This document shows, piece after piece, positions 2,037 through 54,203 of a DNA stretch of 64,000 bases. The DNA lies in NCBI GenBank assembly GCA_016234935.1, contig JACRNL010000010.1, forward strand, positions 95,617 to 159,616, read 5' to 3'. The notes beneath the pieces are model-generated. The model saw nothing but the letters and a program-made list of their open reading frames with translations, did not search any database and was not told the origin of the DNA. Made by a program: the position numbers and the translations under genes. How positions within the stretch are numbered: position 1 is the stretch's first letter; each line of letters starts with the position of its first letter. Origin of the DNA: Deltaproteobacteria bacterium (GTDB lineage: Bacteria; Desulfobacterota; GWC2-55-46).

Positions 2037-2147
2037 CCTCTTCCTTATCTCCTCCCCCTTGATGGGGGAGGGTAGGGTGGGGGTGAAAAAAGCCCCTTGA
2101 AGGGGTTCAACCCCCTCACCCTACCCTCTCCCGCGAGGGGAGAGGAG
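2037..2147. repeat. Pair of REP-like elements (ccccaccctaccctcccc-loop-ggggaggag family) with an 18-bp micro-insertion at 2093-2114
   Basis: Hairpins ctccccc..gggggag and cctctccc..gggagagg; cccc ttgaa gggg ttcaa cccc at 2093-2114. Related copies at 4667-4730, 24105-24205 and 26012-26073. Confidence 0.8.
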
Positions 2148-2785: not shown

Positions 2786-4795
2786 TTGAGCGAATACTTC
2801 AAGGATAAGGAAACATCCGCGCTCAAAAACAGGGCGGTCTATGTCGGCATATTCGTCGCCGTGGTATTCTTCACGCTGGCCGTGCGTCTGTGGTTTCTGC
2901 AGATAAAAGAGGGCGAATACTACGCTGAGCTTGCAAAGAGCAACCGCATCCGCACCGTCAAATCCCCCGCGCCGCGCGGGATGATATACGACCGCGTCGG
3001 CGTTAAACTCGTTGACAACCGCCCCGGCTTTGACCTCTACCTAGTCCCTGAGGACGTCTTGGACTGGGTAAAGACAAAGGAACAGATCAACGACATCCTC
3101 GACGTAGAGCCGGAGGCCGTCCAGGAAAAACTCGACCAGGCCGAGGACAGGCCGCCATTCCAGGCCATAAAGCTAAAAGAAGACCTCTCGTGGGAGGAGA
3201 CGGTCAGGATAGAAAGCTCCAAATTCGAGATGCCCGGCGTTATCCTTGAGGTCAGCCCCAAGAGGAATTACATCTTCGGCGAAGCGTTCTCGCACCTCAT
3301 AGGCTATCTCGGCGAGATAAACGAAAAAGAGACAAAGGAATTCAAGAACGACAAAAACTACGCCCCCGGCGACCTCATCGGCAAGTACGGCATGGAAAAA
3401 TCATTTGAGCCGGACTTGAAGGGCGTGGACGGCGCGAAGGAGATAGAAGTCGACGCGCTGGGCAGGAAGATAAAACTCGCGAACTGGACGCCGCCGTACC
3501 CGGGCAACGACATAAAGCTCACCATAGACATCAAGGCGCAGATGGCCGCGTGGGCCGCGATGGACGGCAAGGCAGGGGCCGTGGTGGCCATGGAGCCGCA
3601 GACGGGCAGGATACTGGCCATCGTGAGCGCGCCCGCGTTCGACCCGAACGCGCTCTCAAGCGGCATCTCCGCCGAGGACTGGAACGACCTTATCGAAAAC
3701 CCTCTGAACATCTTCAACAACAGGCCCATACAGGGGCTCTACCCTCCGGCGTCGACCTTCAAGCCCGTACACGCGGCGGCGGCCCTTGAGGAGAAGGTGA
3801 TTACGCCGAAAACAATGATATACTCCGGCCCGTCCTTCCGATTCGCCAACCGCGACTACCGCGACTGGCAGGAGAAGGGACACGGTATCATCAACGTCCA
3901 CAGGGCAATAGTCGAATCTTCAGACACCTTTTTCTATCAGGTGGGACTCAAGCTCGGCGTTGACAGGCTTGCCGTTTACTCAAAGAGCTTCGGCTTCGGC
4001 CGGAAGACCGGCATACAGCTTCCAAATGAAAAGCCCGGCGTCGTGCCGTCGACCGCGTGGAAAAGGGCCGCGCTGAAGACGCGCTGGTATGACGGCGAGA
4101 CTATCTCGGCTTCGGTCGGACAGGGCTATATGCTGGCAACGCCGCTGCAGCTCGCGTCGGCCTATGCCGCCATAGCCTCCGGCGGCACGATCTACGCGCC
4201 GCAGCTCGTCGAAGAGATAAGGTCCCCGATGGGGACGCTCTTGAAACAGTTCGTCCCGCGGCAAACGGGCAGACTGGCCATATCCGAAGAGACCCTCGGC
4301 GAGGTAAAGGACGCCCTGGAAGGCGTTGTCAATGAAGACGGCGGCACCGCGCGCTTTCTGAGCTATGCAAATCTGAAGATAGCCGGCAAGACAGGCACGG
4401 CGCAGGTGACCAAGCTCATCAAGCGGGAAAGGAACGTCTTGAAGATACCTTACGAATACCGCGACCACGCGTGGTTCGCGGGCTACGCGCCGTATGACGA
4501 TCCGAAGATAGCGGTGGCCGTAATAGTCGAGCACGGCGGCTTCGGCGCGAGTTCCGCGGCGCCGGTCGCCAGAGATATCTTCAAGGCATTCCTCGGCGCG
4601 GACGACAAAGACGCCGGCCAAAAACCCGGACTGACGCCGGACAGGGACATTTTACAGACACGGGAACCCCCCACCCTACCCTCCCCAGCGAGGGGGGTTG
4701 AACCCCTTCAAGGGGAGGAGAAATGGAAGGAGTCATCTGAAACAAAAAAACCGCCGGAAAAACCGGAAGAAAACGGAGACGGGATAAGTGATTGA
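2786..4795 (+). CDS. mrdA: Penicillin-binding protein 2; C-terminal tail partly encoded by a REP element
   Basis: SxxK (STFK), SSD and KTG motifs, N-terminal TM and the mre operon context. Confidence 0.95.
   Translation: MSEYFKDKETSALKNRAVYVGIFVAVVFFTLAVRLWFLQIKEGEYYAELAKSNRIRTVKSPAPRGMIYDRVGVKLVDNRPGFDLYLVPEDVLDWVKTKEQINDILDVEPEAVQEKLDQAEDRPPFQAIKLKEDLSWEETVRIESSKFEMPGVILEVSPKRNYIFGEAFSHLIGYLGEINEKETKEFKNDKNYAPGDLIGKYGMEKSFEPDLKGVDGAKEIEVDALGRKIKLANWTPPYPGNDIKLTIDIKAQMAAWAAMDGKAGAVVAMEPQTGRILAIVSAPAFDPNALSSGISAEDWNDLIENPLNIFNNRPIQGLYPPASTFKPVHAAAALEEKVITPKTMIYSGPSFRFANRDYRDWQEKGHGIINVHRAIVESSDTFFYQVGLKLGVDRLAVYSKSFGFGRKTGIQLPNEKPGVVPSTAWKRAALKTRWYDGETISASVGQGYMLATPLQLASAYAAIASGGTIYAPQLVEEIRSPMGTLLKQFVPRQTGRLAISEETLGEVKDALEGVVNEDGGTARFLSYANLKIAGKTGTAQVTKLIKRERNVLKIPYEYRDHAWFAGYAPYDDPKIAVAVIVEHGGFGASSAAPVARDIFKAFLGADDKDAGQKPGLTPDRDILQTREPPTLPSPARGVEPLQGEEKWKESSETKKPPEKPEENGDGISD
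4667..4730. repeat. REP-like element inside the mrdA 3' end, carrying an 18-bp micro-insertion (4694-4715)
   Basis: ccccccaccctaccctcccc...gggg ttgaa cccc ttcaa gggg aggagaaatggaagg, translated as PPTLPSPARGVEPLQGEEKWK. Confidence 0.85.
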
Positions 4796-9836: not shown

Positions 9837-10442
9837 ATGCCTGGACAAAAACGCGGCAGATTAAGGAGAGGCGCGCCTGACGCGCGCTTATCGGCGCAGG
9901 CGGATAAAACAGCCCCTGAGATGGAAATGGAAACGGAAACCGGCGCAAGCGCCGCCCTGACCATGGCCATGCGGTTTATCTCTTACAGACCCAGATCCGT
10001 AAAAGAAACCGCTCAAAAGCTTACTGACAGCGGCTTTTCCGGCGACGCCATAGAAGACACCATAAACCGCCTTAAAAGCGCGGGCTGTCTGGACGATGAG
10101 AGGTTCGCGCGCGAGCTTGCCGGCTCGAGGATAAGGAACAAAAACTGGGGCCTTAAAAGAGTGGCCCTTGACCTGCGCTCCAAAGGCATCTCCGATGAGA
10201 TAATCCACGCCGCGCTCTCAAACATTGACGCATCGGCTGACGCTGAAACCGCGGCGCGCGCCCTTGAAAAATGGACAAGAAAAACAGGCGTAAAATTCCC
10301 CCGTGACGGAGTTCAACCCCCTGAGGGGGCTCAGCCCCTTGAAAAAAAAGCATTCGAGAAGGCATTCCGTCACCTTGCCGCAAGGGGTTTTTCCGCCCAT
10401 GTCATAATGGGGCTGCTTAAAAGAGGCGGGCAAGAAGATTAA
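9837..10442 (+). CDS. recX: Regulatory protein RecX with a 36-bp in-frame micro-insertion
   Basis: RPRS..E, LDDERFA, G..R...L..KGI and L..RGF motifs. The start may be a later ATG. Confidence 0.88.
   Translation: MPGQKRGRLRRGAPDARLSAQADKTAPEMEMETETGASAALTMAMRFISYRPRSVKETAQKLTDSGFSGDAIEDTINRLKSAGCLDDERFARELAGSRIRNKNWGLKRVALDLRSKGISDEIIHAALSNIDASADAETAARALEKWTRKTGVKFPRDGVQPPEGAQPLEKKAFEKAFRHLAARGFSAHVIMGLLKRGGQED
10299..10338. repeat. Two tandem 18-bp micro-insertion units in recX
   Basis: cccc gtgac ggag ttcaa cccc ctgag gggg ctcag cccc. Removing 36 bp restores KFPLEKK. Confidence 0.85.
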
Positions 10443-25522: not shown

Positions 25523-26032
25523 ATGAAAGAAAACCAGAGTAAAAAAAATTATGAAAGCCCTCCGCCCCCTGATGGGGCTGAACCCCCAAAAAAGGGGCAT
25601 GAGCAAAGACATAAGGTCTTCCCGTTTCTCCTCGGGACCAAGGAATATGCGTTCGAGGCTGGAGATGCGCCGGAGGTCTTGAAGGCCATGCCGGTTACCG
25701 AAGTCCCGTCCACGCCCGCCTTCATAAAAGGCATCATACCCTTCAGGGGGGAGATGCTTGCCGTCATTGACCTTAGAAACCGCCTTGGCATGGAAGGCGC
25801 CGCGCAAAAATCGAAGATGTTAATAGCAGGCGCCGATGACCTGAGGGCCGCCTTTCTCGTTGACGCCGTCGCAGGCGTCTGTGAAGCGGACACGCACCCG
25901 CCTGATGCTACGGAGGAAAAAGACGTTTTCGTAAAGGGGATCATTAAGTCGCAAGGGCGCGTCATCCGCGTGCTGTCGCTCGAAAAACTCCTGAATATCA
26001 GCATCAGCATGCCCCCCTGCCCTCCCCCGTGA
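25523..26032 (+). CDS. cheW: CheW coupling protein
   Basis: F.LG..EYA, TEVP..P.FIKGII..RG....VIDLR and VD.V motifs. The N-terminus has a repeat unit (25565-25586) and the C-terminus runs into a REP. Confidence 0.85.
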   Translation: MKENQSKKNYESPPPPDGAEPPKKGHEQRHKVFPFLLGTKEYAFEAGDAPEVLKAMPVTEVPSTPAFIKGIIPFRGEMLAVIDLRNRLGMEGAAQKSKMLIAGADDLRAAFLVDAVAGVCEADTHPPDATEEKDVFVKGIIKSQGRVIRVLSLEKLLNISISMPPCPPP

Positions 26033-26400
26033 AGGGGTTGAACCCCCTCAGGGGGGAGGAGAAATGGAAGGGGTCGTGCCGACAAAAAAATGACTCTCAC
26101 GCGGATGCGCGCGGGCGCCTTGCTTCAGCCTCCTCAATAATCCTTTCTTTTTATCGCGGCAAAGGTTTTATATGCCGTCATTCCCGCCTGCCCCCTGAGG
26201 GGGTTCAACCCTTTGAAAGGGTTCAACCCTCGCGTGCCCCGTTTAAAACCCCCGCTCCCCGATAGAGGCATTCGAGGACATGTTTAGACCTGCGAGGGTT
26301 GAACCCTTTCAAAGGGCAGGCGCGCGAGGGCAGGCTGAAGCAGGGGATATTTTAATCCGCCCTCGAATAGTTGTATCCCCGATACAGACATTCGGGGGGT
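26012..26400. repeat. Cluster of nested palindromic elements, including 18-bp units at 26034-26055, 26191-26230 and 26295-26316
   Basis: gggg ttgaa cccc ctcag gggg; cccc ctgag gggg ttcaa ccct ttgaa aggg ttcaa ccct; aggg ttgaa ccct ttcaa aggg; plus cccgata..cattcg.gg hairpins. Confidence 0.85.
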
Positions 26401-35341: not shown

Positions 35342-36160
35342 TCAAACCTTATAAATCTTTCGCAGTATGTTTTTCTGTATCAGATAAAAAACAATGCCGG
35401 CATAGATCAGTATTACCGGCAGTATGAGGACGAAGTTCGGAAATGTGGTGTTGCCGCCGACGTCGTTGCCGTCCGAATCGCTTTCTACGATGCTGAAGGC
35501 GTTCCTCAGCACCTTATTGCCTTTTACGGCGTTGCGGTGCGACGACCACAGGAGGATGCCGTTCCACGTGTTGACGTTGGCGGAGTTGCCGCTGAGCAGG
35601 TTGCTGTTTGACGAGCTCAGGAAGATGCCCGTGTCGCCGTTCATGTCCGCGGAGTTGTCCATGACGGTGTTGCCGGTTGACGCTTCGAGATATATGCCGT
35701 ACTGGGTGTTTGAATCCGCGGCGTTGCCGGTGATATGATTTGCCGAAGACGAATATACGAGTATGCCGCTGCCGTTTTTAACGGCCCTGTTGTCCAGTAT
35801 GCGGCTGGCGTCGGCGTTATGCAGGGAAAAGCCTGACACGCTTGAACCTGTCGCGGTAAAGCCCGACACTACCGCTTTGGCGGCATGGTCTATCTTGAAT
35901 ACAGGCTCGGTCTTGACCGCCGCGGTAACGACCGTTGCCTCAGGGCCTTTGATGGACCTTAACTGCACCGCCTTTCTTATGACGATATTTTCGCTGTAAT
36001 TGCCGGCGCCGACGATTATGACGTCGCCCTGCTCTGCCGCGTCAACGGCCTGCCGTATATTCCTGTAACCCTCAGGCACGCGCAAAACCGAGGCAGAGAC
36101 GACAGGGGCCGCAAGCACGGCAACGGCAAACAGCGGTAACGCGATGGTTATCTTACCCAT
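35342..36160 (-). CDS. NosD/CASH right-handed beta-helix protein with a C-terminal TM
   Basis: I.QAVDAA..GD.I.V..G.Y.ENI and repeated GI.L..S..N...N motifs. Confidence 0.8.
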   Translation of the reverse strand: MGKITIALPLFAVAVLAAPVVSASVLRVPEGYRNIRQAVDAAEQGDVIIVGAGNYSENIVIRKAVQLRSIKGPEATVVTAAVKTEPVFKIDHAAKAVVSGFTATGSSVSGFSLHNADASRILDNRAVKNGSGILVYSSSANHITGNAADSNTQYGIYLEASTGNTVMDNSADMNGDTGIFLSSSNSNLLSGNSANVNTWNGILLWSSHRNAVKGNKVLRNAFSIVESDSDGNDVGGNTTFPNFVLILPVILIYAGIVFYLIQKNILRKIYKV

Positions 36161-36282
36161 GCAGGAACTTTCACCCGGCTTTTCAGGATATTGAACGGAG
36201 CTGAATTCTACCAAACCAGCGCAATAAAGTCCAAAGGATTACATCAGTATCAACAGTAAATAATGACAGCGGCCTGCTAAAA

Positions 36283-36804
36283 CTACCCTATCTTAAGCTC
36301 AGTCTCAAGCGGGATGGCGTTGGTGAGGCAATAGACCGCCGGGCATCTCTGTTTGGAAAGCTCTTCAAGCTCCTTTATCTTCGCCGTAGGGGCGTCGCTC
36401 TCGACGTGAAGCGTGAACTTGACCTTTCCGGCAATCGGGTTTTCAGAAAGACCGAAGACCTTTGAAAAATCGAGATTGCTCTCGGCAAGGACGCTGAGCT
36501 TTTTAAGGGTCACGCCTTCCATCGCGGCCATCGTGGCGAACGTAGCCACGTAGCATGACGCGGAGCCGTAAAGGCAATATATCATCGGGCCGGGCTGCGT
36601 GCCCCCGCCGCCGAGAAAGGACGGCTGGTCTGCCTCAAGGGTCATCCTGCCGTTCTCGAACTGGACTGTGGCCCTGAACTGGCTGCCCTCGCCGACGTTC
36701 CATTCCCCTTCTATCTTTGTCACCTTTTTTGCCTTTGAGAGGTCTTTCTTTACCTCGGCTATGGTCACGTAGAGTTTTTCAAGGTTTACGTTGTTCTTTT
36801 TCAT
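36283..36804 (-). CDS. OsmC/Ohr-like protein
   Basis: ADQP..LGG.G..P.P, SC and RCP motifs. Confidence 0.8.
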   Translation of the reverse strand: MKKNNVNLEKLYVTIAEVKKDLSKAKKVTKIEGEWNVGEGSQFRATVQFENGRMTLEADQPSFLGGGGTQPGPMIYCLYGSASCYVATFATMAAMEGVTLKKLSVLAESNLDFSKVFGLSENPIAGKVKFTLHVESDAPTAKIKELEELSKQRCPAVYCLTNAIPLETELKIG

Positions 36805-36850
36805 CTATCCCCCTTTTTTCAGATGCTTGATGCCGCCGGAATCCGGTAAA

Positions 36851-37906
36851 TCATTCAACCCTTATCCGCCAGCCCTCTTCCGCGCTGACGACGGAACCGA
36901 TAAGATAGTGCCTGACGCGCCGCTCCGTTAGATTACTTGAGAGCATATCATACTTCCCTTCAGGAATGGAAATAAGAAGTCCGCCCGAGGTCTGCGGGTC
37001 GAAAACGGCCATTTGCAGGGCGGCGTCCATGCCGTGCTTGAACTGAATGTCCGGGGCCATGAACTCCATATTTTCAGCAATGGCGCGGGGCCTGTTGCCA
37101 CGGCTGGTCACAAGCTCCAGCGCCTTCGGAAAAAACGGTATGTCCTTTGACGCGATGACAAGGTTTACGTTGGATGCCGTTGCCATCTCCAGGGCGTGGC
37201 CCATAAGGCCGTAGCCGGTAATGTCCGTGCACGCCTTGGCGCCTGTCTCCACCATGGCCTCCGCGGCGGCCCTGCTGAGCGTCTTCATCGACGTAAACGC
37301 GGCCTGGGCATCTTCAGGCCTGATATTTCCCTTTTTAAGCGCGCTCGTTATTATGCCCGTGCCGATGGGCTTTGTGAGCACGAGGAGGTCGCCCGGCCTT
37401 GCCCCGGCGTTCGTTATGACCTTTTCAGGATGCACAACGCCGGTGACGGACAGGCCGAACTTTATTTCCTTATCCTCGATGCTGTGGCCTCCGGCAAGCA
37501 CGGCCCCGGCCTCGTCCAGCCTGTCAACGGCGCCCCTTATTATCTCGGTCAGCACCTCCATGCCAAGCTCTTTGGGGAAGCAGACGATGTTAAGGGCAAA
37601 CCTCGGCACGCCGCCCATGGCGTAGACGTCGCTTAATGCGTTCGCGGCGGCTATCTGGCCGAAAAGGAACGGGTCGTCCACTATGGGCGGAAAGAAGTCC
37701 AGCGTGGACACGACGGCTATTTCACCGGACATCTTATAGACCCCCGCGTCGTCGGACTTGTCAAAACCAACGATGAGGTCTTTATCCCTTTGCATCGGTA
37801 GCCCGCGCAGGACCTGCGCGAGCGGCTTGGCGCCGAGTTTGGCCGCTCAGCCGGCGCAGCTTGCCCAGTTCGTGAGCTTTATCTTTTTGCCGCTTTTGAA
37901 CATCAT
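36851..37906 (-). CDS. selD: Selenophosphate synthetase, selenocysteine at codon 20
   Basis: The frame extends past the annotated start through TGA at 37847-37849: MMFKSGKKIKLTNWASCAG-U-AAKLGAKPLAQVL. Also DDAGVY, DFFPP, NALSDVYAMGG and DPQTSGGLL. Confidence 0.95.
37802..37846 (-). promoter_or_regulatory. Candidate bacterial SECIS element of selD
   Basis: Hairpin ctcgcgcag-gtc-ctgcgcggg about 25-45 nt after the UGA; its apex resembles the E. coli fdhF GCAGGUCUGC. Confidence 0.6.
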
Positions 37907-38611
37907 CTATATATACCCGTAAAGCCTGTAAAGCGCAATGGCCGCGTACTCCCAGAGGAGTTCATCCATCAAATTAATCCTGCCGAGGCCGCCCACCCTG
38001 TATCGGGCGACGTCCTTTACCGGCGCGCCGTAATACGAAAGACCGAGTTTTTTGGCGACGAGCGAGGCCCTTTTCATGTGGAGGGACGACGTCACGATGA
38101 TGCAGCTCTTCAGCCCCTTTTCATCCATGTATTTTTTCGCGTGCAGGAGATTTTCGTACGTATTGGTCGACGAGGGGTCTATGACCGCCGCCTTTTCCGG
38201 CACCCCGAGCTTTAACGCTGTCTCTCCCATGAGGCCGCCCTCTGAAGCGTCTATCACGCCTTTGTCCGTCGACTTCATTAACGTATGGGCGATCTTCGCG
38301 GCCTTTGAGGCGATGGCCCCGCCGGTGAACATTATCCCCGGCGCCCAGCCTTCTTTGTAAAGAAGCAGTCCGCGGATGAGCCGCTCATTCGACGCGCCGG
38401 CGAGGACGCCGTTCTTGAACGCCCCGCCGCCGAGAACGACTATTATGTCGGCCTTTTCAAGCGTCTCCTTCACCACCAGCGGCCTTGCCAGCAGGTTGGC
38501 AGCCGGCGTGAACATTACGAAAAGCGCAGTTGCGGTAAAGGCGGCGCAAAACCATTTTATAACGGTCAACGCGGTCTTTACGCGGCCGGATTTATGCAAT
38601 GACTTATGCAA
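37907..38611 (-). CDS. YdcF/DUF218 family protein
   Basis: IVVLGGG, TGG, SE, S.NTYEN, VTS..HM.RA motifs. Confidence 0.88.
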   Translation of the reverse strand: MHKSLHKSGRVKTALTVIKWFCAAFTATALFVMFTPAANLLARPLVVKETLEKADIIVVLGGGAFKNGVLAGASNERLIRGLLLYKEGWAPGIMFTGGAIASKAAKIAHTLMKSTDKGVIDASEGGLMGETALKLGVPEKAAVIDPSSTNTYENLLHAKKYMDEKGLKSCIIVTSSLHMKRASLVAKKLGLSYYGAPVKDVARYRVGGLGRINLMDELLWEYAAIALYRLYGYI

Positions 38612-40712
38612 TTTCCCTCCCCTTGAAGGGGCTGAGCCCCCTCAGGGGGTTCAACCCCCTTAACACTCTTAAATCCCCCTGCCGGAGCGTGACCCTCTCC
38701 CTGTCAAAATATTCGAGTATCTCTATCGCGAGCTTCCTGCCGACGCCGAGTATGTCCCTGAACTCGGCGGCCTTTATCGGCCCCTTTTCCATGATATGCG
38801 CGCAGAGCCTCTCTTTGGCGTCATTAACGGCCTTGCCGGACATATAGACGCCTTCTTTTATCTTCACCACGACGCCGCGCTTGACGAGATATCCAAAGAC
38901 GCGCGCCGCGTCCTCAGGCTTGAACGCGAGCCCCCTTATCTCATCCATAGAGCGCGCGGTAAAACCGCCGGATTGGAAAAGGGCCATTACAGCGGCCTCT
39001 ATCTGCGCGTCCTGTCCGGCGGCGCGCGGACAATGCCCGGCAAGCGCGACGGCCTTGCCGTCTCTTTTAATCATGCCCTGCGTTATCATTACGTCAAGGC
39101 ATTCCTTGAAAAATGAAACTGTGCAACGCGCCCAGCACCACTTTTCGCTGCCAACGTTTGTATTTCGCATGAACTCTTGGCGATGGAAAGTGGTGCTGGG
39201 CGCTCTTACGGCCTTAAATATCTGGTCTTCCTTGACGCCGGCCTCGGCGGGGCTTGCGGCGTGAAGGTCTGAAAGCGTTTTTACGATGTCGCTCTTCAGT
39301 TTTTCAACCCTGTCAACGGACGCTATCGAACTGCCCATGATGGCGAACTTCCCTCTCCCTGAGGGAGTCCGGGACAGAGGCCCTTTTGATTCGAATGATT
39401 TAAGCAGAACATCTTCCCTTATATTCAAGAGGAGAGAGACGGTCTTTACGTCAAAAAAAACAGCCTTGCCGTGAAAGACCGAGGCGAGCAGCTCATGGAG
39501 TTCAGCCCCTTCAAGCGGCAACACCGGCTCCCTGAAGGAGTTCAACTCCTTTGAAAGACCGGGAAGATGCACAACCCCGCCGCCAACGGTGGCATTTATT
39601 GCAGGGTCTCTGAGGATGAAACGGTCGCCCCGAAGCATTAACATGGGCTTTTTCAATATCAGCCTGCCAAAGGCGCGCCGTTCGTCCGCCTTGCGGCCCG
39701 TCCGGCTCCCTAAGGGAGTTCGGCTCCCTGAGGGAGTCCCGCCCTTTAATCTTATTGTCGCTGGAACGCTTTGCGTAAAATGGTGCACGGTAAGTATCGC
39801 GTTGTTTTTTATCTTCGCATCCTTCAGAAACTCAAAAAAGCAGTCCACGCGGCGCGTATTGGCCGGGCTTGAAAAAGCCGACAGGGCCGGGTCGGCGAGC
39901 ACGCAGCCGCGCGTTATGCCGCTGTGTGAAATGCCGCTTATGTTTACGGCGGCCCGCTCCCCGGCGTTGACCTCATCGGCCTCCATGAACAGGCTTTGAA
40001 GCCCCCTTACACGCGCCTCTTTTCCAAGAGGAAAGCATACGGCCCTGTCGCCTTTTTTTATCGAGCCTGAGGCCACGGTGCCGGTAACGACCGTGCCAAA
40101 GCCCGGCACGCTGAAGGAGCGGTCAATGGGGAGCCTGAAAAAGCCGCCATTATCCCGCGCGCGCGGGGCGAGGGCTTTTTCTATCAGCTTTTTAAGGCTT
40201 GAGATGCCCTCGCCCGTGACGGAAGAGACCGGCTGGATAACTGAACCTTCAAAGGCCGTGCCTTTTATAAGTTTTAAGATTGCATTTTCAACCTCACGGA
40301 TGCGCGCCTCTTCCGCCATGTCGCGCTTGGTGATGGCGAATACAGCCCTTTTTATCCCAAGAAGCACGCAGATGCCGAAGTGCTCAAGCGTCTGCGGCAT
40401 TATCCCGTCGTCGGCGGCCACCACAAAAAGCGCCATGTCAATGCCGGTCGTTCCGGAGAGCATGTTCTTTATGAAACGCTCATGGCCGGGCACGTCAATG
40501 ACTGCGGCCCTTAGAGCGCCCCCGGCGCCGTCGAGGTCAAGATACGCAAAGCCGATGTCAATGGACAGCCCGCGCTTTTTTTCTTCCTTCAGCCTGTCCG
40601 TGTCAATGCCCGTAAGGGCACGGACGAGGGAGGTCTTGCCGTGGTCTATGTGCCCGGCGGTGCCGATGACGGCGGATATGCGCGTTATGTGCGGCATGTT
40701 CTGTTGTTCCAT
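38604..40712 (-). CDS. selB: Selenocysteine-specific elongation factor SelB with several repeat-derived inserts
   Basis: GTAGHIDHGKT, TDRLKEEKKRG, DVPGHERF, IDRSF...GFGTVVTGT and C-terminal RK.AI..LEYFD winged helix. Confidence 0.95.
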   Translation of the reverse strand: MEQQNMPHITRISAVIGTAGHIDHGKTSLVRALTGIDTDRLKEEKKRGLSIDIGFAYLDLDGAGGALRAAVIDVPGHERFIKNMLSGTTGIDMALFVVAADDGIMPQTLEHFGICVLLGIKRAVFAITKRDMAEEARIREVENAILKLIKGTAFEGSVIQPVSSVTGEGISSLKKLIEKALAPRARDNGGFFRLPIDRSFSVPGFGTVVTGTVASGSIKKGDRAVCFPLGKEARVRGLQSLFMEADEVNAGERAAVNISGISHSGITRGCVLADPALSAFSSPANTRRVDCFFEFLKDAKIKNNAILTVHHFTQSVPATIRLKGGTPSGSRTPLGSRTGRKADERRAFGRLILKKPMLMLRGDRFILRDPAINATVGGGVVHLPGLSKELNSFREPVLPLEGAELHELLASVFHGKAVFFDVKTVSLLLNIREDVLLKSFESKGPLSRTPSGRGKFAIMGSSIASVDRVEKLKSDIVKTLSDLHAASPAEAGVKEDQIFKAVRAPSTTFHRQEFMRNTNVGSEKWCWARCTVSFFKECLDVMITQGMIKRDGKAVALAGHCPRAAGQDAQIEAAVMALFQSGGFTARSMDEIRGLAFKPEDAARVFGYLVKRGVVVKIKEGVYMSGKAVNDAKERLCAHIMEKGPIKAAEFRDILGVGRKLAIEILEYFDRERVTLRQGDLRVLRGLNPLRGLSPFKGREIA
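38619..38658. repeat. Nested pair of 18-bp micro-insertions at the selB 3' end
   Basis: cccc ttgaa gggg [ctgag cccc ctcag gggg] ttcaa cccc. Confidence 0.9.
39355..39736. repeat. Four micro-insertion loci inside selB, mostly CTCC/GGAG type (39355, 39497, 39528, 39706)
   Basis: ctcc ctgaa ggag ttcaa ctcc (39528-39549); ctcc ctaag ggag ttcgg ctcc ctgag ggag (39706-39736). Confidence 0.78.
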
Positions 40713-40713
40713 T

Positions 40714-40801
40714 AGAAGCAGCGCGGGGCTTCTGCCCCGCGCTGCTTCTTGATGTGACTCTAAAGTTCTTTGGGCCTGCCTTTCTTTCAGGAAAGGCAGG
40801 C
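40714..40801. repeat. Two hairpins between selB and the hydrogenase genes
   Basis: 16-bp perfect stem at 40714-40749; taaagttctttgg+gcctgcctttc..gaaaggcaggc at 40761-40801, with a relative at 55668-55708. Confidence 0.75.
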
Positions 40802-40847
40802 TAATTTACAGAATGCCCTTTTTATGGTATCATTTCAACAATAAATT

Positions 40848-41666
40848 ATGCCGGAAAATGCCGAAAAAATAAGGCCGAAGGCGGCTTTTTTCTCATTCAC
40901 CTGCTGCGAGGGCTGCCAGCTCGCCGTGCTCAGCTGTGAAGACGAGCTGCCTGACATACTGCGCGCCCTTAATATCGTTTACTTCCGCGAGGCGATGACC
41001 GAAAAGCGCGTTGAACCCTCTCAGAGGGAGGATTACGATATCGCCTTTGTCGAAGGCTCCGTCACCACGCAAAAAGAGATAACAAAACTCAAGCATATCC
41101 GCAAAAAGGCAAAGACCGTCATAGCCCTTGGCGCGTGCTCGTCCACAGGCGGGCTCAACTGCCTTAAAAACCGTTTTCCCATGGACTTCGTTAAAAAGAC
41201 GGTATACGGCAAATACGCCGAAAAATATAAAAAAACATTTGAGACCCTGCCTGTAAGGCCGATTGATTCCATAATAAAAGTTGACTGCTATTTGCACGGC
41301 TGTCCGATATCGAAGACTGAATTCCTGTCCGCGTTCACCGCGCTTCTCATGGGCAAGACACCCATAACCCAGAACTACCCCGTGTGCGTCGATTGCAAGA
41401 TGGCCGGAAACATCTGCGTATTTGAAAAGGGCATGACCTGTCTTGGGCCGGTGACTCGGGCCGGATGCGACGCCGTCTGCGTCACATACGGGTGCATCTG
41501 CTGGGGCTGCCGGGGACTTGTCGACGACCCGAACGTGTCGGCCCATAAAGAGACGCTAAAGAGATACGGCCTCACCGCCGAATCGATGCTGCGCAGCTTT
41601 GATCTTTACGGCAACTGCTCCCTGAGAAAGTCCGGCTCCCTGGGAGTCAGGCCCGCTAAAAAATGA
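40848..41666 (+). CDS. [NiFe]-hydrogenase small subunit (group 3b delta-like)
   Basis: CCEGC, FVEGS, ALGAC...GG, GCP, VC.DC, CLGPVTRAGC...C and C.GC.G motifs; no Tat signal. 18-bp insert at 41007-41028. Confidence 0.88.
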   Translation: MPENAEKIRPKAAFFSFTCCEGCQLAVLSCEDELPDILRALNIVYFREAMTEKRVEPSQREDYDIAFVEGSVTTQKEITKLKHIRKKAKTVIALGACSSTGGLNCLKNRFPMDFVKKTVYGKYAEKYKKTFETLPVRPIDSIIKVDCYLHGCPISKTEFLSAFTALLMGKTPITQNYPVCVDCKMAGNICVFEKGMTCLGPVTRAGCDAVCVTYGCICWGCRGLVDDPNVSAHKETLKRYGLTAESMLRSFDLYGNCSLRKSGSLGVRPAKK

Positions 41667-42961
41667 AAAAAAACCTTCACATAAAGATACACGAAATAAC
41701 CCGCGTCGAAGGACACGGCGACATCGTCATTGACATCAGAAAGGGCCGGATAAAGGAATTGCGGCTCGATATAATCGAATCGCCCAGGTTTTTCGAGGTG
41801 ATGCTCGTGGGCAGGAAATACGACGAGGCCCAGCACATCATGTCCCGTATATGCGGCATCTGCGCGGTGAGCCACACGTCGGCGTCCCTGAAGGCCATAG
41901 AAGCGGCCATGGGCATGACGATATCCCGGCAGTCCTTGCTCCTCAGAAAGCTCGCCTTTTGCGGCGAAAGCATACAGAGCCACATACTGCATCTTTTTTT
42001 CCTTGTATTCCCCGACCTCCTCGGGGCCGGGTCTATCGCGCCACTTTTGACGGCGGAGCCGGAGCTTGCCAGGACCGGCCTTGAGCTGAAACGCCTTGCC
42101 AACGAGATATGCGCGGTCGTGGGCGGAAGGCACATACATCCCATCTCTCTGTTTCCGGGCGGAGTGGCGCACACGCCGGAGGAGGCTGACCTTAAAAGGC
42201 TTAAAAAGGCCCTCTTAGCCTCGTTTGCAAAGCTCGACTACACGCTCGGGTTTCTGTCAAACATCCCCGTGCCGCAATTTGCAAAACCCAGGGAGACAAT
42301 CTCCCTGAAGGCGCGGGGCGAATACCCGCTGCATGACGGCAAGCCTTATTCGGATAAAGAGGGCGCCATCGAGCCGGAAGAATACAGCCGCAAGGTGAAG
42401 GAATATTGCGTGAATCATTCCACGGCCAAACACGCAAGAACGAAGTCCGGGACGTTCATGGTCGGCGCTCTGGCGCGCCTTAACAACAACTTCAAACTCC
42501 TCAGCCCGCGCGCAAAGGCGGCGGCGAAAAAGGCCGGCCTGACCCTGCCGCTTGAAAACCCGTTCATGAACAACATGGCCCAGCTCATCGAATGCTTCCA
42601 CCTGACGGACGAGGCCGCCGGCCACATTGACTCGCTCATTGAAAACGGCCTGAAAAGCGAGCCTGTAAAAAAGCCCCGCAACGGTTTCAAGGGAGGCAGG
42701 GGCATAGGCATTGTCGAGGCCCCAAGGGGCACGCTCTACCATGATTATACGATAGACAAAAACGGCATAGTCAAAAAGGCCGATTGCGTCATACCCACGG
42801 CGCAGAACCTGCGTTCCATCGAAGACGATCTGAAGGCCTTCGTGCCGACGCTCCTTGACAGGCCCAGGGAGGAGATACGCCGGGGCGTAGAGACGCTCGT
42901 CAGGGCCTATGACCCATGCATATCCTGCTCGACGCATATAATGGACGTGCGTTTTGTCTAA
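41663..42961 (+). CDS. [NiFe]-hydrogenase large subunit (group 3b alpha-like)
   Basis: TRVEGHG, L1 RICGIC..SH, EAPRG.LYH and L2 DPCISCSTH motifs. Confidence 0.92.
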   Translation: MKKNLHIKIHEITRVEGHGDIVIDIRKGRIKELRLDIIESPRFFEVMLVGRKYDEAQHIMSRICGICAVSHTSASLKAIEAAMGMTISRQSLLLRKLAFCGESIQSHILHLFFLVFPDLLGAGSIAPLLTAEPELARTGLELKRLANEICAVVGGRHIHPISLFPGGVAHTPEEADLKRLKKALLASFAKLDYTLGFLSNIPVPQFAKPRETISLKARGEYPLHDGKPYSDKEGAIEPEEYSRKVKEYCVNHSTAKHARTKSGTFMVGALARLNNNFKLLSPRAKAAAKKAGLTLPLENPFMNNMAQLIECFHLTDEAAGHIDSLIENGLKSEPVKKPRNGFKGGRGIGIVEAPRGTLYHDYTIDKNGIVKKADCVIPTAQNLRSIEDDLKAFVPTLLDRPREEIRRGVETLVRAYDPCISCSTHIMDVRFV

Positions 42962-42962
42962 A

Positions 42963-43036
42963 GCAGGCAGCTGAAAAAGTCCCATCTACGTCGTTGCCTT
43001 CGTCGCCTAGTAGCTGGGACTTTTTGAGCTGCCTGC
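42963..43036. mobile_element. Short MITE-like element, internally deleted relative of 21039-21161
   Basis: 22-bp TIRs gcaggcagctgaaaaagtccca / tgggactttttgagctgcctgc. Confidence 0.72.
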
Positions 43037-43085
43037 CCGTAACAGGCTGCGCGTCAGACTATTATAAAAAAAGGGGCATATCCCG

Positions 43086-44213
43086 ATGCGCATAAATGTC
43101 ATCCCCAAACAGCTCCTTGATAAACTGCTTGCCACCAAGCAGGAGCACGGCTACCGGCCTGAAAGCTTCGACCTGAAGGGAATGCTCAAGGGCATCCTTC
43201 TACAGGCAAACAGGTTCGTCCCGTCGGAGTCAGGCTCGATACTCATTGACGATTCGGCCCTTGGCCGCCGCTTGCCTGACGCGGGTTTGCTCTACTTCGT
43301 GGCCTGCTTCGGCAAGGGCTCAGCCGCGGTCACCGGCGCAACCCTCGCCCCCGGTCTCGGCATAGCCGGTTCGACCTACTCATCGGGCAGGCCATACATC
43401 AGCAAGCAGGTCATGCAGGACAGCCGGTTCTATCCAAAATTCGACAAGATGACGAAGTATGAGACGCAGTCCATCATCTGTGCGCCGATAAAGATGCGCG
43501 GCGGCGTCATAGGGGTCATAGAGCTCATCAACAAGCTCAGCGGCATAAACTACGCAAAGGGCGATCTGACGCTCCTTAAGATCTTCGCCGAATATACCTC
43601 GACCCTCATCCAGAACGCCCTTGACGCAAAGAGCTACGGGGAGCTTTCGATACGGGACAACCTCACCGGACTGTATAACGACCGCTATATCTTCGACAGG
43701 CTTGAAAAAGAGGTCTCGACTGCCTTGAGGAAAAAGACCGGCCTTAGCGTGGTATTCATGGACCTCGACAGGTTCAAGGAAATCAACGACTCCCACGGCC
43801 ACCTTGTGGGAAGCCGCGTCCTTACCGAAATAGGCCACATCCTCTTCGCGGTCACGCGAAAGGCGAACGGAATCGCGGCAAGATACGGCGGGGACGAGTT
43901 CACGGCCATTCTCCCCGACAAAGACATCGAATGGGCCGCTGAATACGCCGAAAAGATCAGAATGACCATCGAGGACTGCACGTTCATAACGCGCAAAAGC
44001 AGGGGCATAAAAAAGGCCCTTGACATCTCAGGCATAATCACCGCGAGCCTTGGCGTGGCCTCGCTGCGGACAAACATCGAAGGCAAGGGCAGCGCAAAGG
44101 TGATAGGCGACTCGCTCATAAGGCTGGCCGACGCCGCCATGTACCAATCAAAAACAGACGGCAAAAACCGCGTTACCCTGGCTCGAAAAAGGTTCGTTTT
44201 CCCGGCCAGCTGA
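43086..44213 (+). CDS. GAF-domain diguanylate cyclase
   Basis: GAF domain (GIAG, IICAP, IGVIELIN), D.LTGLYN, DLD.FK.IND.HGH and RYGGDEF. Confidence 0.93.
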   Translation: MRINVIPKQLLDKLLATKQEHGYRPESFDLKGMLKGILLQANRFVPSESGSILIDDSALGRRLPDAGLLYFVACFGKGSAAVTGATLAPGLGIAGSTYSSGRPYISKQVMQDSRFYPKFDKMTKYETQSIICAPIKMRGGVIGVIELINKLSGINYAKGDLTLLKIFAEYTSTLIQNALDAKSYGELSIRDNLTGLYNDRYIFDRLEKEVSTALRKKTGLSVVFMDLDRFKEINDSHGHLVGSRVLTEIGHILFAVTRKANGIAARYGGDEFTAILPDKDIEWAAEYAEKIRMTIEDCTFITRKSRGIKKALDISGIITASLGVASLRTNIEGKGSAKVIGDSLIRLADAAMYQSKTDGKNRVTLARKRFVFPAS

Positions 44214-44288
44214 CCAATCCCCGTTTAAAGAAGACATGTTTTTACATCATAATCCCTTGTTTTTATTGAGTTTTACAGTTAAGACGGC

Positions 44289-44317
44289 TTGACAGGGGCA
44301 GTTCATGGTATTATAAT
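44289..44317 (+). promoter_or_regulatory. Consensus sigma70 promoter for hsp20
   Basis: TTGACA-17 nt-TATAAT, exact match. Confidence 0.8.
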
Positions 44318-44368
44318 GTAAGTAAGACGCCAGAGAGATGAAAGTGGGAAACAAGGGAGGTGAGTGTT

Positions 44369-44845
44369 ATGTTTGAGCTAAAAAGATGGGAGCCTTTAAA
44401 AGAGCTTTCAACTATCCAGAGGGATATGGATGATCTCTTCAAAAGGACCTTCGGCAGCTTGACGGCGAACATCTTCGGCAGGGAAGTGAGAATGGGCATG
44501 TGGAACCCTGCGGTTGACTGTTTCGTGAAGGAAGGCAACTTCGTTGTCCATGCCGATATTCCCGGAATAGACCCTAGGAACGTTGACATCTCGATTGTGG
44601 GAAACCTGCTCACCATCAAAGGCGAGAGGAAGTCCGAAGTCGAGGAGAAGAAGGGCGGATACCTCTTCCGCGAGGCTTCATACGGAACGTTTGAAAGGAC
44701 GGTATCTCTTCCTGAAGGATGCGAGACAGACAAGGTTCATGCCACTTATAAAAACGGCGTGCTTGAACTGACGATGCCCGCAAAGGCAGGAGCGCTTCCG
44801 AGGAAGGTGAAGGTCGAGATTGAGGAGTTAAAGAAGGCGGCCTAA
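44369..44845 (+). CDS. Small heat shock protein (Hsp20)
   Basis: WEP..EL, P.VD, DIPG, LTIKGER, YG.F.R...LP and A.YKNGVL motifs; GGAGG RBS. Confidence 0.93.
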   Translation: MFELKRWEPLKELSTIQRDMDDLFKRTFGSLTANIFGREVRMGMWNPAVDCFVKEGNFVVHADIPGIDPRNVDISIVGNLLTIKGERKSEVEEKKGGYLFREASYGTFERTVSLPEGCETDKVHATYKNGVLELTMPAKAGALPRKVKVEIEELKKAA

Positions 44846-45012
44846 GCAGGCCTTGACATAAAGGCAAATATACAGAGCGTCAGAACAAAGCAGACCAAGG
44901 CGCGAAGAGAGTGAGGAGCAACGAAGGTATGCGAAGTTATGGCGCTCTGTATGGAAACATGAAGACAGCAACGCGTTAAAAATACCCGTTCATCTCATGC
45001 AAGGCGTCAAAA

Positions 45013-45049
45013 GGGGCTGAGCCCCCTCAGGGGGTCAAACCCCCTTCAA
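45013..45049. repeat. 18-bp micro-insertion array
   Basis: gggg ctgag cccc ctcag gggg tcaaa ccccc ttcaa. Confidence 0.8.
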
Positions 45050-45165
45050 CTACCCGCAAGGCCGCGAAGAAATAAGGCCTCACGGGTTTTGTTTTATTTC
45101 CATGTCTCACCGTCCCTTCCCCCCATTACGGTAACAAACGAGAAATGCTCCAACGGCCGGGCCTG

Positions 45166-45486
45166 TCACAAATATATCGCCTTTATCAGCTTTACAATAA
45201 GCCTCATCTTTTCTTCACCACCCTTATCAATCAGCGAGTTGACAAGCTCCTTCAACTCTTTTTGAGACTTTCCATGATATGAAAAATTGAACAGATCGCG
45301 CAGTTCAACGCCCAGGGCGGCGGCAAGACTTATGAAGGTGTCAAGCGTGGGGTTTTCCTTGCCCCTTTCGATACTGCTAAGGTACTTGGAGCTTATACCC
45401 ATCTTCTCGGCAAGGACCTCCTGGGACATGCCGCTTGCCCTTCTCAACTCCTTTATCCTCTGCCCTATGAGAGCTTTCACTTGCAT
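45166..45486 (-). CDS. XRE-family HTH transcriptional regulator
   Basis: IG.RIKELR...GMSQE.LAE..GIS..YLS.IERG..NP motif. Confidence 0.92.
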   Translation of the reverse strand: MQVKALIGQRIKELRRASGMSQEVLAEKMGISSKYLSSIERGKENPTLDTFISLAAALGVELRDLFNFSYHGKSQKELKELVNSLIDKGGEEKMRLIVKLIKAIYL

Positions 45487-45542
45487 CGGGTCATTATCTA
45501 TATTATCGAATGAGAGTTAAACCATCTGATACAAGAAAAAAC

Positions 45543-45570
45543 TTGACAAAATCTAACCCTTGGTTATAAT
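45543..45570 (+). promoter_or_regulatory. Sigma70 promoter, divergent from the XRE gene
   Basis: TTGACA-16 nt-TATAAT. Confidence 0.7.
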
Positions 45571-45665
45571 TTAAAGCTCTCAGATAGAATATTACATTAA
45601 AAATATAACCGTCGGACTGAGTCATCCTCACGCATTATGAAAATCTTATCTCATATGGAGAGACC

Positions 45666-46211
45666 GTGAATGACATGTTCGAGATACATAAACATGATGA
45701 AAAAATGTTGATATTCTCAGGAGATGATGAAATCCCCTATTCAATAGGCGGCTTTCTTACCGACAGCGTGGTTTTTAAAATTTCCGTGGAAGCTGCGCTC
45801 TGGTGCAAATCCTACAAGCCTCCAGGCCTTGGCGCAGGCTGTATAATGCCGGAGATAAACTTCCTTGTGATAACCGCCTTGATAAAAAACCGCGCAGCGC
45901 AGTCCCTCGCCATCCCCAGGTCTTCGCCTCCGGTGTTCACACTGCTTGAAGAATACGGCGAGGAACATGCCGTAAGCGCAAACCCGGCCTTTGCCGGACG
46001 CAACCTCACAAGGAAGATATTATCCGGAAGCGTCATCCATCCCAAGTTGCCGCTTAAGGGGGAGCTTGTCTTTGACGTGCCTGAGGGGGACTATGCTCTT
46101 GTTGTATCCAGGGGAGCGCTCGACATGAACGGGTGCATAAAACGCGTGTGCGACATAGGCAGATACAGATTAACTCCTCAAAATAAAAACCATACGGACT
46201 CTGACGAATGA
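45666..46211 (+). CDS. Hypothetical protein
   Basis: 181-aa ORF with GGAG RBS behind a consensus promoter. A G.LVFDVP motif is reminiscent of DUF4352-like Ig folds. Confidence 0.55.
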   Translation: MNDMFEIHKHDEKMLIFSGDDEIPYSIGGFLTDSVVFKISVEAALWCKSYKPPGLGAGCIMPEINFLVITALIKNRAAQSLAIPRSSPPVFTLLEEYGEEHAVSANPAFAGRNLTRKILSGSVIHPKLPLKGELVFDVPEGDYALVVSRGALDMNGCIKRVCDIGRYRLTPQNKNHTDSDE

Positions 46212-46234
46212 CCTTCATCCGCGGCAGGGCTTTT

Positions 46235-46588: not shown

Positions 46589-46691
46589 GCGCAGGGCCTG
46601 TTTAAGATGCAAAAAAGACCGCTAAAACATCCCTCCGGTTTCAGGCTCTGTCCTGACGGCCGATTCATCCACCATTATCAATCCATTCTCC

Positions 46692-47837: not shown

Positions 47838-47909
47838 TTTTCCACTCCTGTTCCAAATGTTTATTAAATCCCGCTATCAGCGGGTTTTATTCCTCTATCG
47901 GTTTCAGGT

Positions 47910-48332
47910 TCAGCGCGGCGCGCCTTCCGGCCTTTTCTCTTCGGCCTCTCTGTGCATTCTGTCGAGTATGCCGTTGACGAACGCGCCGGATTCATCCGTG
48001 CCGAAACGCTTGGCCAGCTCTACCGCTTCGTCTATGGCCACCTTGAAGGGGACGTCGGAATAGCGCATCTCATATACGGCTATCCTCAATATATTGCGGT
48101 CAACGAGCGGCATGCGCTCGACGCTCCAGTTATCGGAAGATATCTCGATTACGCGGTCTATGTCGCCCTTTTTCTCCAGCACGCCGCGCACAAGGGCCTC
48201 GGCATAATCCTTTACCCCCTCAGGGGGCTGAACCCCCTGAAGGGGTTCAACCCCGGCGCCGCTTTCCTCGGCGATGTCAATACTGTAAAGCATCTGGACC
48301 GCCATCTCTCTTGCCTTGCGCCTGGAGTTCAT
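47910..48332 (-). CDS. nusB: Transcription antitermination factor NusB with a 12-aa repeat-derived insert
   Basis: RRKARE.A.Q.LY, W...R...VDR.ILR, IDEAVELAK.FG and FVNGILD motifs. Confidence 0.95.
   Translation of the reverse strand: MNSRRKAREMAVQMLYSIDIAEESGAGVEPLQGVQPPEGVKDYAEALVRGVLEKKGDIDRVIEISSDNWSVERMPLVDRNILRIAVYEMRYSDVPFKVAIDEAVELAKRFGTDESGAFVNGILDRMHREAEEKRPEGAPR
48215..48254. repeat. Two tandem 18-bp micro-insertion units in nusB
   Basis: cccc ctcag gggg ctgaa cccc ctgaa gggg ttcaa cccc. Confidence 0.9.
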
Positions 48333-48335
48333 TTC

Positions 48336-48812: not shown

Positions 48813-48876
48813 TTGCTTCCTCCTGTTTTCTTCTATTCACTTACGCGCCTCTGTCATTCAACAAGTAAAAATCAGA

Positions 48877-48921
48877 TTGAAAGGGTCAAGCCCCCTCAGG
48901 GGGTTGAACCCCTTCAAGGGG
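48877..48921. repeat. 18-bp micro-insertion array, intergenic
   Basis: aggg tcaag cccc ctcag gggg ttgaa cccc ttcaa gggg. Confidence 0.85.
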
Positions 48922-48926
48922 CGACG

Positions 48927-50162: not shown

Positions 50163-50205
50163 TTTTACCGCCTCCGTCTGTATGCTTCAGTAATCTTAAA
50201 AAAAC

Positions 50206-50245
50206 CCCCCTGAGGGGGCTGGACCCCTTGAAGGGACTGGACCCC
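50206..50245. repeat. 18-bp micro-insertion array, intergenic
   Basis: cccc ctgag gggg ctgga cccc ttgaa ggga ctgga cccc. Confidence 0.8.
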
Positions 50246-50300
50246 TCGGAGCCGCCTGTCCATTAATCCCCGCCACGATGAGCGTGCAGGCAAGAAAAAT

Positions 50301-51011
50301 CTATCCCTTCTTGAAAAACCCGTGCTCCTTGAGGAACTCTTCCGACACACCCTTCTTCCCTTCCTTCGCGCTTAAAAACCGCTCCACATACTTCGCCAGC
50401 ACGTCGGTTTCGATATTGACCGTGCTCCCTTCGGCCTTTGACGGCAGGGTCGTCTTTTCAAGAGTATGCGGAATAATCGCCGTTTTAAAAAAATCCAACC
50501 CCCTGAGGGGGCTGAGCCCCACTTCCGTGACGGTGAGGCTTATCCCATCCACAGCAATCGACCCCTTTTTGACGATTTGAGACATCAACCTCTCCGGCAC
50601 GCTTATCTCAAGGTCAACATGCCGGCCATTTGCGCTCTTTTTCCTTATTGTCCCGATGCCGTCTACATGGCCGGTGACGATGTGGCCGCCGAGGGGCTTG
50701 GAAAGTGTCAGAGCGGCTTCAAGGTTGACATGCGCGCCGCTTTTAAGCGTCCCCAGCGTGGTGAGCTTGAGCGTCTCAGCGCTCATGTCAGCCGAAAAAA
50801 GGGGGTGACCCCCTTCAACGCACTTTTTAATTTCCGTCACGGTCAAACACGCGCCGTTGACGCTGATGCTGTCGCCAAGGTTGACCCCGCTCAGTGGGCG
50901 GACATTTTCACGCGCCAAATCAACCAACGCCTCTATTGTTATTCTACCAGAAGCGCCTTTTTTTTCAACAGATTTGACCCTGCCTATTGCTTCTATTATG
51001 CCGGTAAACAC
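50301..51011 (-). CDS. ribE: Riboflavin synthase alpha with up to three 6-aa inserts
   Basis: GTG start giving MFTGII; GDSI.VNG.CLTV, GGH.V.GHVD and IPHT motifs. Confidence 0.95.
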   Translation of the reverse strand: MFTGIIEAIGRVKSVEKKGASGRITIEALVDLARENVRPLSGVNLGDSISVNGACLTVTEIKKCVEGGHPLFSADMSAETLKLTTLGTLKSGAHVNLEAALTLSKPLGGHIVTGHVDGIGTIRKKSANGRHVDLEISVPERLMSQIVKKGSIAVDGISLTVTEVGLSPLRGLDFFKTAIIPHTLEKTTLPSKAEGSTVNIETDVLAKYVERFLSAKEGKKGVSEEFLKEHGFFKKG

Positions 51012-51035
51012 CCTATTGCCGCCCTCCATAACTCA

Positions 51036-54181: not shown

Positions 54182-54203
54182 GGGGTTGAACCCCTTCAAG
54201 GGG
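54182..54203. repeat. 18-bp micro-insertion whose right GGGG is the tRNA 5' end
   Basis: gggg ttgaa cccc ttcaa GGGG(ctgtagctcag). Confidence 0.9.

Follow-up and report, generated by a model that had tools for sequence, protein, structure and literature searches.

The window analyzed here is the whole 64-kb stretch of DNA, which corresponds to C5:95617-159616 of a 2.15-Mb, 15-contig assembly rated 100% complete. At positions 38619-38658, inside the selB gene, this window carries a palindromic array that probably represents a stereotyped 36-bp composite, copied as a whole beside a GGGG run that was already present. The composite recurs at unrelated sites in the genome, where it lies at runs of four G or four C residues (G4/C4 runs) and produces a length difference of 36 bp. 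It belongs to a family of very small dispersed palindromic repeats, which is of interest for its size and for the way it is copied.

Read directly from the window, the array is C4-TTGAA-G4-CTGAG-C4-CTCAG-G4-TTCAA-C4, exactly the letters given in a sequence-only reading of this stretch. The pattern C4-N5-G4-N5-C4 occurs 19 times in the window, far above chance (0.01 expected, with 19 reached in 0/100 shuffles). The features at the selB site are given below, with strand for the open reading frames (ORFs).

38604..40712, minus strand: selB ORF, 702 amino acids, identified from its translation, Pfam SelB/EF domains, homolog names, and the C-termini of 42 homologs.
38619..38658: 40-bp array, read as the 36-bp composite insert (TTGAA/TTCAA shell, CTGAG-C4-CTCAG core) plus a 4-nt run already present.
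38619..38622: left C4 run (G4 on the selB sense strand), a flanking run; the equivalent place in the sister-lineage relative L001 has a single GGGG.
38655..38659: right C run of 5 C, the second flanking run.
38675..38679: empty alternative target, C5 (G5 on the sense strand, codons RQG-D); L001 carries the same 36-bp composite here.
37907..38611, minus strand: downstream ORF of 234 amino acids, with a TTG start that overlaps the selB stop.

The two flanking runs of the array look like a target and its duplicate. The composite encodes LNPLRGLSPFKG four codons ahead of the stop and makes SelB longer by 12 residues, such that the protein ends in ...TLRQGDLRVLRG-LNPLRGLSPFKG-REIA-stop.

The repeat family as a whole has a 9-bp module: C4 runs alternate with G4 runs, and each is separated from the next by a YTSAR 5-mer. 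Its basic unit is 18 bp long and comprises two complementary 5-nt arms, with a 4-nt run between them and the complementary run after the second arm. The 5′ arm has G at its center and the 3′ arm has C, whichever strand is read, and four arms dominate (TTGAA, TTCAA, CTGAG, and CTCAG). Genome-wide arrays were counted in two ways. A strict parse, which required YTSAR 5-mers exactly 9 bp apart with alternating C4/G4 runs between them, gave 226 loci, with 94, 92, 20, 19, and 1 of these carrying 1, 2, 3, 4, and 6 units, respectively. A relaxed parse, which accepted any 5-mer as an arm, gave 256, 141, 68, 40, 2, and 1 arrays of 1 to 6 units. Most of the strict one-unit loci are really two-unit arrays whose second arm is a variant, such as TTCGG, GTCAC, or CTTGA. 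The paired strict counts (94/92, 20/19, 0/1) fit growth by 18-bp steps from two starting states.

The exact 40-mer of the selB array is present in 10 copies on 9 contigs, 7 with unrelated flanks and 3 in copies of one larger repeat. Four variants with one or two letters changed bring the near-identical copies to about 14. Because the array at 38619-38658 is one of these composite copies beside G4/C4 runs, it was most likely inserted whole. The 40 relaxed four-unit arrays comprise 13 of nested type, 11 of tandem type, and 16 with other (mixed) patterns. Among the nested-type arrays (arm centers G, G, C, C, with one variant G, G, C, A), 9 are exact composites and 4 are variants, and the tenth exact copy lies inside a five-unit array. 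The tandem-type arrays (centers G, C, G, C) are 11 different sequences. No array has a TTGAA-type unit inside a CTGAG-type unit or shows like nested in like, and shell and core types are found in no combination but that of the composite.

The sequence-only reading had explained the nested array by two sequential events. An 18-bp TTGAA-G4-TTCAA unit would have arrived first, and an 18-bp CTGAG-C4-CTCAG unit would then have entered the new central run. Applied to the genome, this model requires both steps to have been taken independently at the other composite loci as well. Both 18-bp forms do exist alone (26 and 15 strict two-unit arrays), runs are targets and are regenerated, arrays differ by 18-bp steps, and there is one triply nested array of six units. 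However, TTGAA-type, hybrid, and CTGAG-type units are comparably common (26, 25, and 15), and therefore several nested combinations would be expected if the insertions were independent. The count of nested versus tandem forms that had been suggested as a check came out at 13 to 11, yet all nested arrays, along with the tenth exact copy, are one composite or its one- to two-letter variants.

The alleles found in relatives also bear on this question. A scan of metagenome contigs with SelB found a single relative, L001, whose SelB is 77% identical. In the L001 selB gene, the identical 36-bp block is oriented the same way and lies at another GGGG, about 20 bp farther upstream. The protein ends in ...TLRQG-LNPLRGLSPFKG-DFRVLRGKEIA, in which a conserved C-terminal motif is split by the insert. 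At either site, one lineage carries the insert and the other just a single G run, which makes them differ in length by exactly 36 bp. The next relative, P0003 (SelB 75% identical), ends in ...RQGDSRVLRG and is empty at both sites. The block is missing at both sites in 40/42 SelB homologs (P0003 and 39 further sequences) and in 8/8 family genomes examined. Since loss from a common ancestor would need two copies plus many losses, the placements in the window and in L001 are independent insertions. No 18-bp intermediate is present at selB among the window, L001, P0003, and the 39 further homologs, where alleles are either 0 or 36 bp. Thus, a comparison in which 0-, 18-, and 36-bp alleles had been anticipated returned only 0, 36, and 36 at a neighboring run.

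The selB genes of the window and L001 differ at other points. Within its selB (~1810-1850), L001 has an extra hybrid TTGAA-C4-CTCAG unit that encodes GLNPLRG and that the window lacks, so gains in the family differ in both directions over ~12% nucleotide divergence. Relative to L001, the window selB has extra in-frame insertions at ~39696-39740 and ~39353-39370, which belong to a sister family with the same 18-bp design and CTCCC/GGGAG runs; one is ~42 bp with two units, and the second measures exactly 18 bp. A further in-frame insertion that L001 lacks, 63 bp long and at ~39130-39201, belongs to a ~70-bp dispersed repeat with copies 86-94% identical on at least 6 other contigs of the genome and weaker copies in relatives G014, G004, and G008. 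Finally, an 11-12-nt motif occurs twice at 38583-38612, at a spacing of 14 nt. This short direct repeat covers the stop of selB together with the start of the ORF that follows, and it is conserved in L001 with one change.

Counts of repeats inside ORFs use a crude longest-ORF map, and conclusions about genes rest on the three (selB, a hydrogenase protease gene, and recQ) that were checked against homologs. The HyaD/HybD-type hydrogenase protease carries the composite in frame as an exact 12-residue insertion, which is missing from 7/7 family orthologs and from 7/8 aligned database homologs. Likewise, recQ carries the composite in frame, and a relative that is 87% identical is without exactly these 12 residues. 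No 6-residue (18-bp) allele occurs at the protease or recQ site among the relatives compared. Two protease homologs, P0044 and P0048, have insertions of 12 and 6 residues in the N-terminal region (KGVTPFKGLNPC and RGLPPD) that have no counterpart in this genome and that probably also belong to the superfamily.

Given identical composites dispersed through the genome, a whole block at another run in the sister lineage, and no 18-bp allele at any of the three sites with close relatives (3/3), we consider separate two-step origins at the individual loci unlikely, and the claim of two sequential events at 38619-38658 is not upheld. The nesting would most likely have arisen once, in a founder copy that then spread as a unit.

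Several observations nevertheless weigh against copying as a single piece. Only one to three close relatives were available for each composite site, and therefore a short-lived 18-bp intermediate could be missed. Public groundwater contigs break at the repeat and so give no allele information. Of 11 groundwater runs listed, 10 contain the stretch or part of it, and over 36001-56000 four of them (X2, X3, X7, and X8) show short contigs, loose ends at 38619, and joints between different arrays. Three of the 10 identical copies lie in one larger repeat and were perhaps carried along with it. In addition, the six-unit array nests the three commonest two-unit forms inside one another, as the sequential model would predict. 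Lastly, P0045, the closest relative at the protease site (91% identity across the aligned part), has an insert of 18 residues made up of AEPLQG and AEPPEGAQPLQG, although this 54-bp allele needs confirmation, given that its contig is 637 bp long and the tail is read out of frame. The protease site would then have alleles of 0, +36, and +54 between close relatives.

Runs are targets, they are regenerated, and arrays grow stepwise in 18-bp steps. Insertion takes place at a pre-existing G4/C4 run, which is afterwards found on both sides of the insert, and the inserted lengths are quanta of 18 and 36 bp. Because the product is flanked by the same 4-nt run that is single in empty sites, usable targets are left after every insertion, as the sequence-only reading had supposed. 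This behavior is seen within the genome in a larger dispersed hairpin repeat, which has 15 anchors (e.g., C12:76375, C10:219216, and C7:33440) and lies in the window at 2055-2125, 4683-4730, and 26013-26070. It consists of a C-rich arm, C5-GTGAA-G5, and a purine-rich tail that ends near ...GGGGTCATC. Many of the micro-insertions lie at its C and G runs. Its empty form is the plain C5-GTGAA-G5 hairpin. In three copies, the C run holds the composite, and others have one 18-bp unit at the G run, including a variant on contig 10 and two copies in the window.

4683..4715: 18-bp TTGAA/TTCAA unit at the G run of the larger hairpin repeat.
26025..26056: hybrid 18-bp unit (arms unmatched), likewise at the G run of this hairpin repeat.

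One further copy has two different 18-bp units in tandem (+36) at the G run, such that 0, +18, and +36 (tandem) states all exist among copies of the larger repeat at its runs. Similar Pro/Gly-rich hairpin repeats follow selB in the family relatives L008 and L011.

Arrays of this kind could in principle be produced locally, by replication slippage or template switching within a palindrome and with no input from other copies. The 4-nt runs, spaced 18 bp apart, are direct repeats able to support slippage, and a few arrays contain near-duplicate units. Slippage would, however, be expected to duplicate whole units, and exact duplication of an 18-bp unit (units 1 = 3 and 2 = 4) was found in 0/40 four-unit arrays. 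Therefore, slippage is not the main process, a point on which our results agree with the sequence-only reading. Furthermore, empty alleles hold no template for the arms, and the identical 36-bp block is present at unlinked loci. A local origin is highly improbable on these grounds.

A different proposal is that the array is kept by selection as a signal, whether a terminator or RNA hairpin, an array of binding sites for a DNA-binding protein, or a peptide tail. Some family members adjoin A/T runs in the manner of a terminator hairpin, the G-rich end of the selB composite lies just upstream of the TTG start of the ORF at 37907..38611, and the 13-bp palindromes could conceivably be binding sites. 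However, there are no terminator-like sites in 38300-38950 and no promoter-like site at the selB copy, and the only match in Rfam 15, TLS-PK1, scores 18.5 bits where the gathering score is 80 (E = 0.4). The array folds into hairpins with 5-nt arms and a 4-nt loop, but the 48-nt DNA, at -12.2 to -12.7 kcal/mol, is just 1.4 to 2.0 standard deviations better than shuffles (z of -1.4 to -2.0; z of -1.6 for an 81-nt RNA). The copies occupy unrelated genes, and the position differs between sister lineages, with 40/42 homologs lacking the block altogether. Moreover, the composite is read in different frames in different genes, as GLNPLRGLSPFKG in selB and as GVEPPEGAQPLQG in the protease and recQ, which indicates that the DNA rather than the peptide is conserved and that selection is not on the peptide. 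A selected signal is accordingly a poor prospect.

The sequence-only reading had also emphasized correctly matched ends. The 92 strict two-unit arrays most commonly have the arms TTGAA/TTCAA (26), the unmatched pair CTGAG/TTCAA (25), or CTGAG/CTCAG (15). Exactly complementary arms are found in 45/141 relaxed two-unit arrays, compared with 39 ± 4.3 in shuffles (maximum 54). When only the four canonical arms are considered, there is a modest association between arms (26, 3, 25, 15; Fisher p = 0.013). Matched ends thus describe the copy at 38619-38658 well, but they are not a rule for the family, in which 25/92 arrays have the unmatched CTGAG/TTCAA pair and complementarity is near the shuffle level. 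That reading had named two outcomes that would speak against it, a lack of intermediate alleles and random pairing of arms, and what we observed, in a small sample of relatives, is largely of this kind.

The family is confined to this lineage. A degenerate 22-mer has 163 matches in this 2.15-Mb genome and a single match, in 1 genome, among 400 other genomes of the phylum, and the TTGAA/TTCAA 22-mer is found in 0/40 relatives from the family and order. A collection-wide scan with the 22-mer gave at least 6 loci in unrelated taxa; the 5 genomes checked have 1 match each, so we regard these as chance matches. Within the genome, family insertions occupy genic and intergenic positions as well as other repeats, and one lies flush against a tRNA. 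We also considered whether the units are parts of a longer element or have an extended target. This was rejected, since 76/112 even arrays have no arm-like sequence past the terminal runs and the flanks of the 112 even arrays show no strong consensus (best column, G at -1 in 56/112).

We considered two ways in which such short DNA might be copied. On the C-rich strand, even arrays end in C (p = 0.002), and in ORFs they end in G on the sense strand, an orientation bias that could be a sign of a single-strand or lagging-strand mechanism. This interpretation was rejected because the supply of free G4/C4 runs explains the bias fully. C-ended arrays make up 66% compared with 60% of available C runs at negative skew (p = 0.13) and 41% compared with 40% at positive skew, and G is on the sense strand in 65% of arrays in ORFs compared with 61% of free G runs. 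The fact that orientation tracks the free-run supply argues against a strand-specific single-strand mechanism of the IS200/RAYT type. A search for Y1/RAYT (PF01797) had 0 matches in the 100%-complete assembly, with a control search positive in 6/14 reference genomes. Genes of the RVT_1, DDE_Tnp_1, DDE_Tnp_1_2, TnpB, and IS110 types were not found in the 15-contig assembly. Transposases are not known to bind the ends of elements as small as these, with a body of 14 or 32 bp and arms of 5 bp.

Chimeric arms and heterogeneous tandems suggest that copying can start and stop at any like run, which favors copying driven by the host. We therefore favor copy-in by host replication or repair, although at somewhat less than even chances. 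A nascent end that finishes in a run would pair with the complementary run of another copy, would then copy 18 or 36 nt to the next like run, and would return. A template switch of this sort would need no dedicated transposase. A trans-acting nuclease or transposase is about equally possible. More tentatively still, the 18-bp units, in which a 14-nt hairpin is joined to a 4-nt run, might, together with the 36-bp composite, be the smallest self-propagating DNA described, spreading with no element-encoded or dedicated enzyme, in that any G4/C4 run would prime copying and each insertion would recreate the run. Three points count against such enzyme-free spread. First, rve-type (integrase/IS3-like) matches, the only positives of the 7 transposase and reverse-transcriptase families searched, lie at C12:28178-28471, C12:3462-3707, and C9:65951-66265. 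Second, metagenome assemblies often miss insertion sequences. Third, we know of no citable precedent for template switching to an unlinked locus when just 4 nt serve as the primer.

Additional family members are distributed across the window. The sequence-only reading had listed tandem doubles at 10299, 26191, 48215, 48882, and 50206. Multi-unit arrays are indeed present at or near these positions, but they have heterogeneous arms and are not neat matched doubles. The first five entries below correspond to these positions.

10299..10343: degenerate tandem array or pair with center letters G, C, G, C.
26191: one clean unit and one decayed unit.
48215..48254: four-unit mixed-arm array (CTCAG, CTGAA, CTGAA, TTCAA), neither nested nor clean tandem.
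48891..48921: three-unit array.
50205..50227: two-unit array and a partial third unit.
2093..2114: two-unit TTGAA/TTCAA array.
45013..45043: three-unit array.
50499..50520: two-unit array with direct (not inverted) CTGAG arms.
54182..54203: two-unit array G4-TTGAA-C4-TTCAA-G4, whose last GGGG is the first 4 bases of tRNA-Ala.

The tRNA-Ala gene at 54200-54275 is intact despite abutting the last of these arrays, and it illustrates the duplicated target run.

If the overall interpretation is correct, DNA far shorter than any transposase binding site behaves as mobile DNA, with a recognizable 4-base G or C target, target duplication, subfamilies, and composites that move as units. Because unit lengths are multiples of 9 bp, insertions stay in frame and pass through reading frames, as in SelB, RecQ, and the hydrogenase protease, all of which are longer with their ORFs preserved. 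Enzyme-free spread, if real, would generate in-frame indels of 6 and 12 residues in essential genes and would be a distinct origin of such changes. The family offers a natural system for studying how mini-repeats are copied, a question that applies equally to the small dispersed repeats (SDRs) of cyanobacteria and to untagged REP-like repeats, and for studying how essential proteins tolerate small in-frame insertions. There is also a warning for annotation: where proteins of this lineage have short insertions rich in Gly, Pro, and Leu, these are repeat DNA and not functional motifs.

The SDRs of Nostocaceae cyanobacteria were reportedly described by Elhai et al. in 2008 (Genome Res 18:1484). 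They appear to be the nearest in kind to the present family, along with untagged REP-like repeats and intragenic REP/RPE elements as treated in passages of PMC3733652. Work on SDRs is cited in passages of PMC3116915, PMC5861425, PMC2884548, and PMC3733652, and one member, SDR5, inserts at HIP1, a specific short sequence, according to a passage of PMC5861425. SDRs resemble our family in being very short (~20 bp) dispersed repeats that are thought to be mobile, with no known transposase and with a short specific target. They differ in that sequence and phylum are unrelated, and in that the family described here has an 18-bp quantum, a G4/C4 target that is duplicated, lengths in multiples of 9 bp that lie in frame in housekeeping genes, and a 36-bp nested composite that forms its own subfamily. 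Abstracts and passages of the papers listed by literature searches gave no description of an 18-bp in-frame unit with a G4/C4 target.

A passage of PMC3733652 defines MITEs as elements of 70-300 bp with terminal inverted repeats of 15-30 bp that are moved by a transposase recognizing them. In layout, our repeats resemble a miniature MITE: they have inverted arms at their ends, the 4-bp target is directly repeated on either side, and they are polymorphic for presence or absence. Such target duplication, with G4 on both sides and a single run when empty, was found at the two selB sites and in copies of the larger repeat. However, with arms of 5 bp and a body of 14 bp in the 18-bp unit or 32 bp in the composite, they fall outside the size limits of MITEs. 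Furthermore, no parent insertion sequence was identified, with 6/7 enzyme families giving no match and rve matching at 3 places.

REP, BIME, and REPIN elements, as presented in parts of PMC3116915 and PMC3733652, are likewise high-copy short palindromes with clusters of alternating orientation and lineage-specific abundance, and they are occasionally intragenic and in frame. The same passages give stems of 5-13 bp in 20-40-bp units for REPs, whereas the arms here are 5 bp. The flanks of the 112 even arrays contain no conserved tetranucleotide comparable to the REP tag GTAG/CGTC (Di Nocera et al. 2013). In contrast to REPs and REPINs, this family comes without a Y1/RAYT gene and shows no orientation bias beyond the supply of targets. 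Rickettsia palindromic elements (RPEs) are roughly 100-150 bp in size. A passage of PMC3733652 portrays RPEs as palindromes that lie in frame in genes that probably still function. The same trait is seen here as in-frame insertion into conserved genes (12 residues in the protease and recQ, and the split SelB motif of L001), whereas our inserts differ from RPEs in being 18 or 36 bp long and in having an evident target run.

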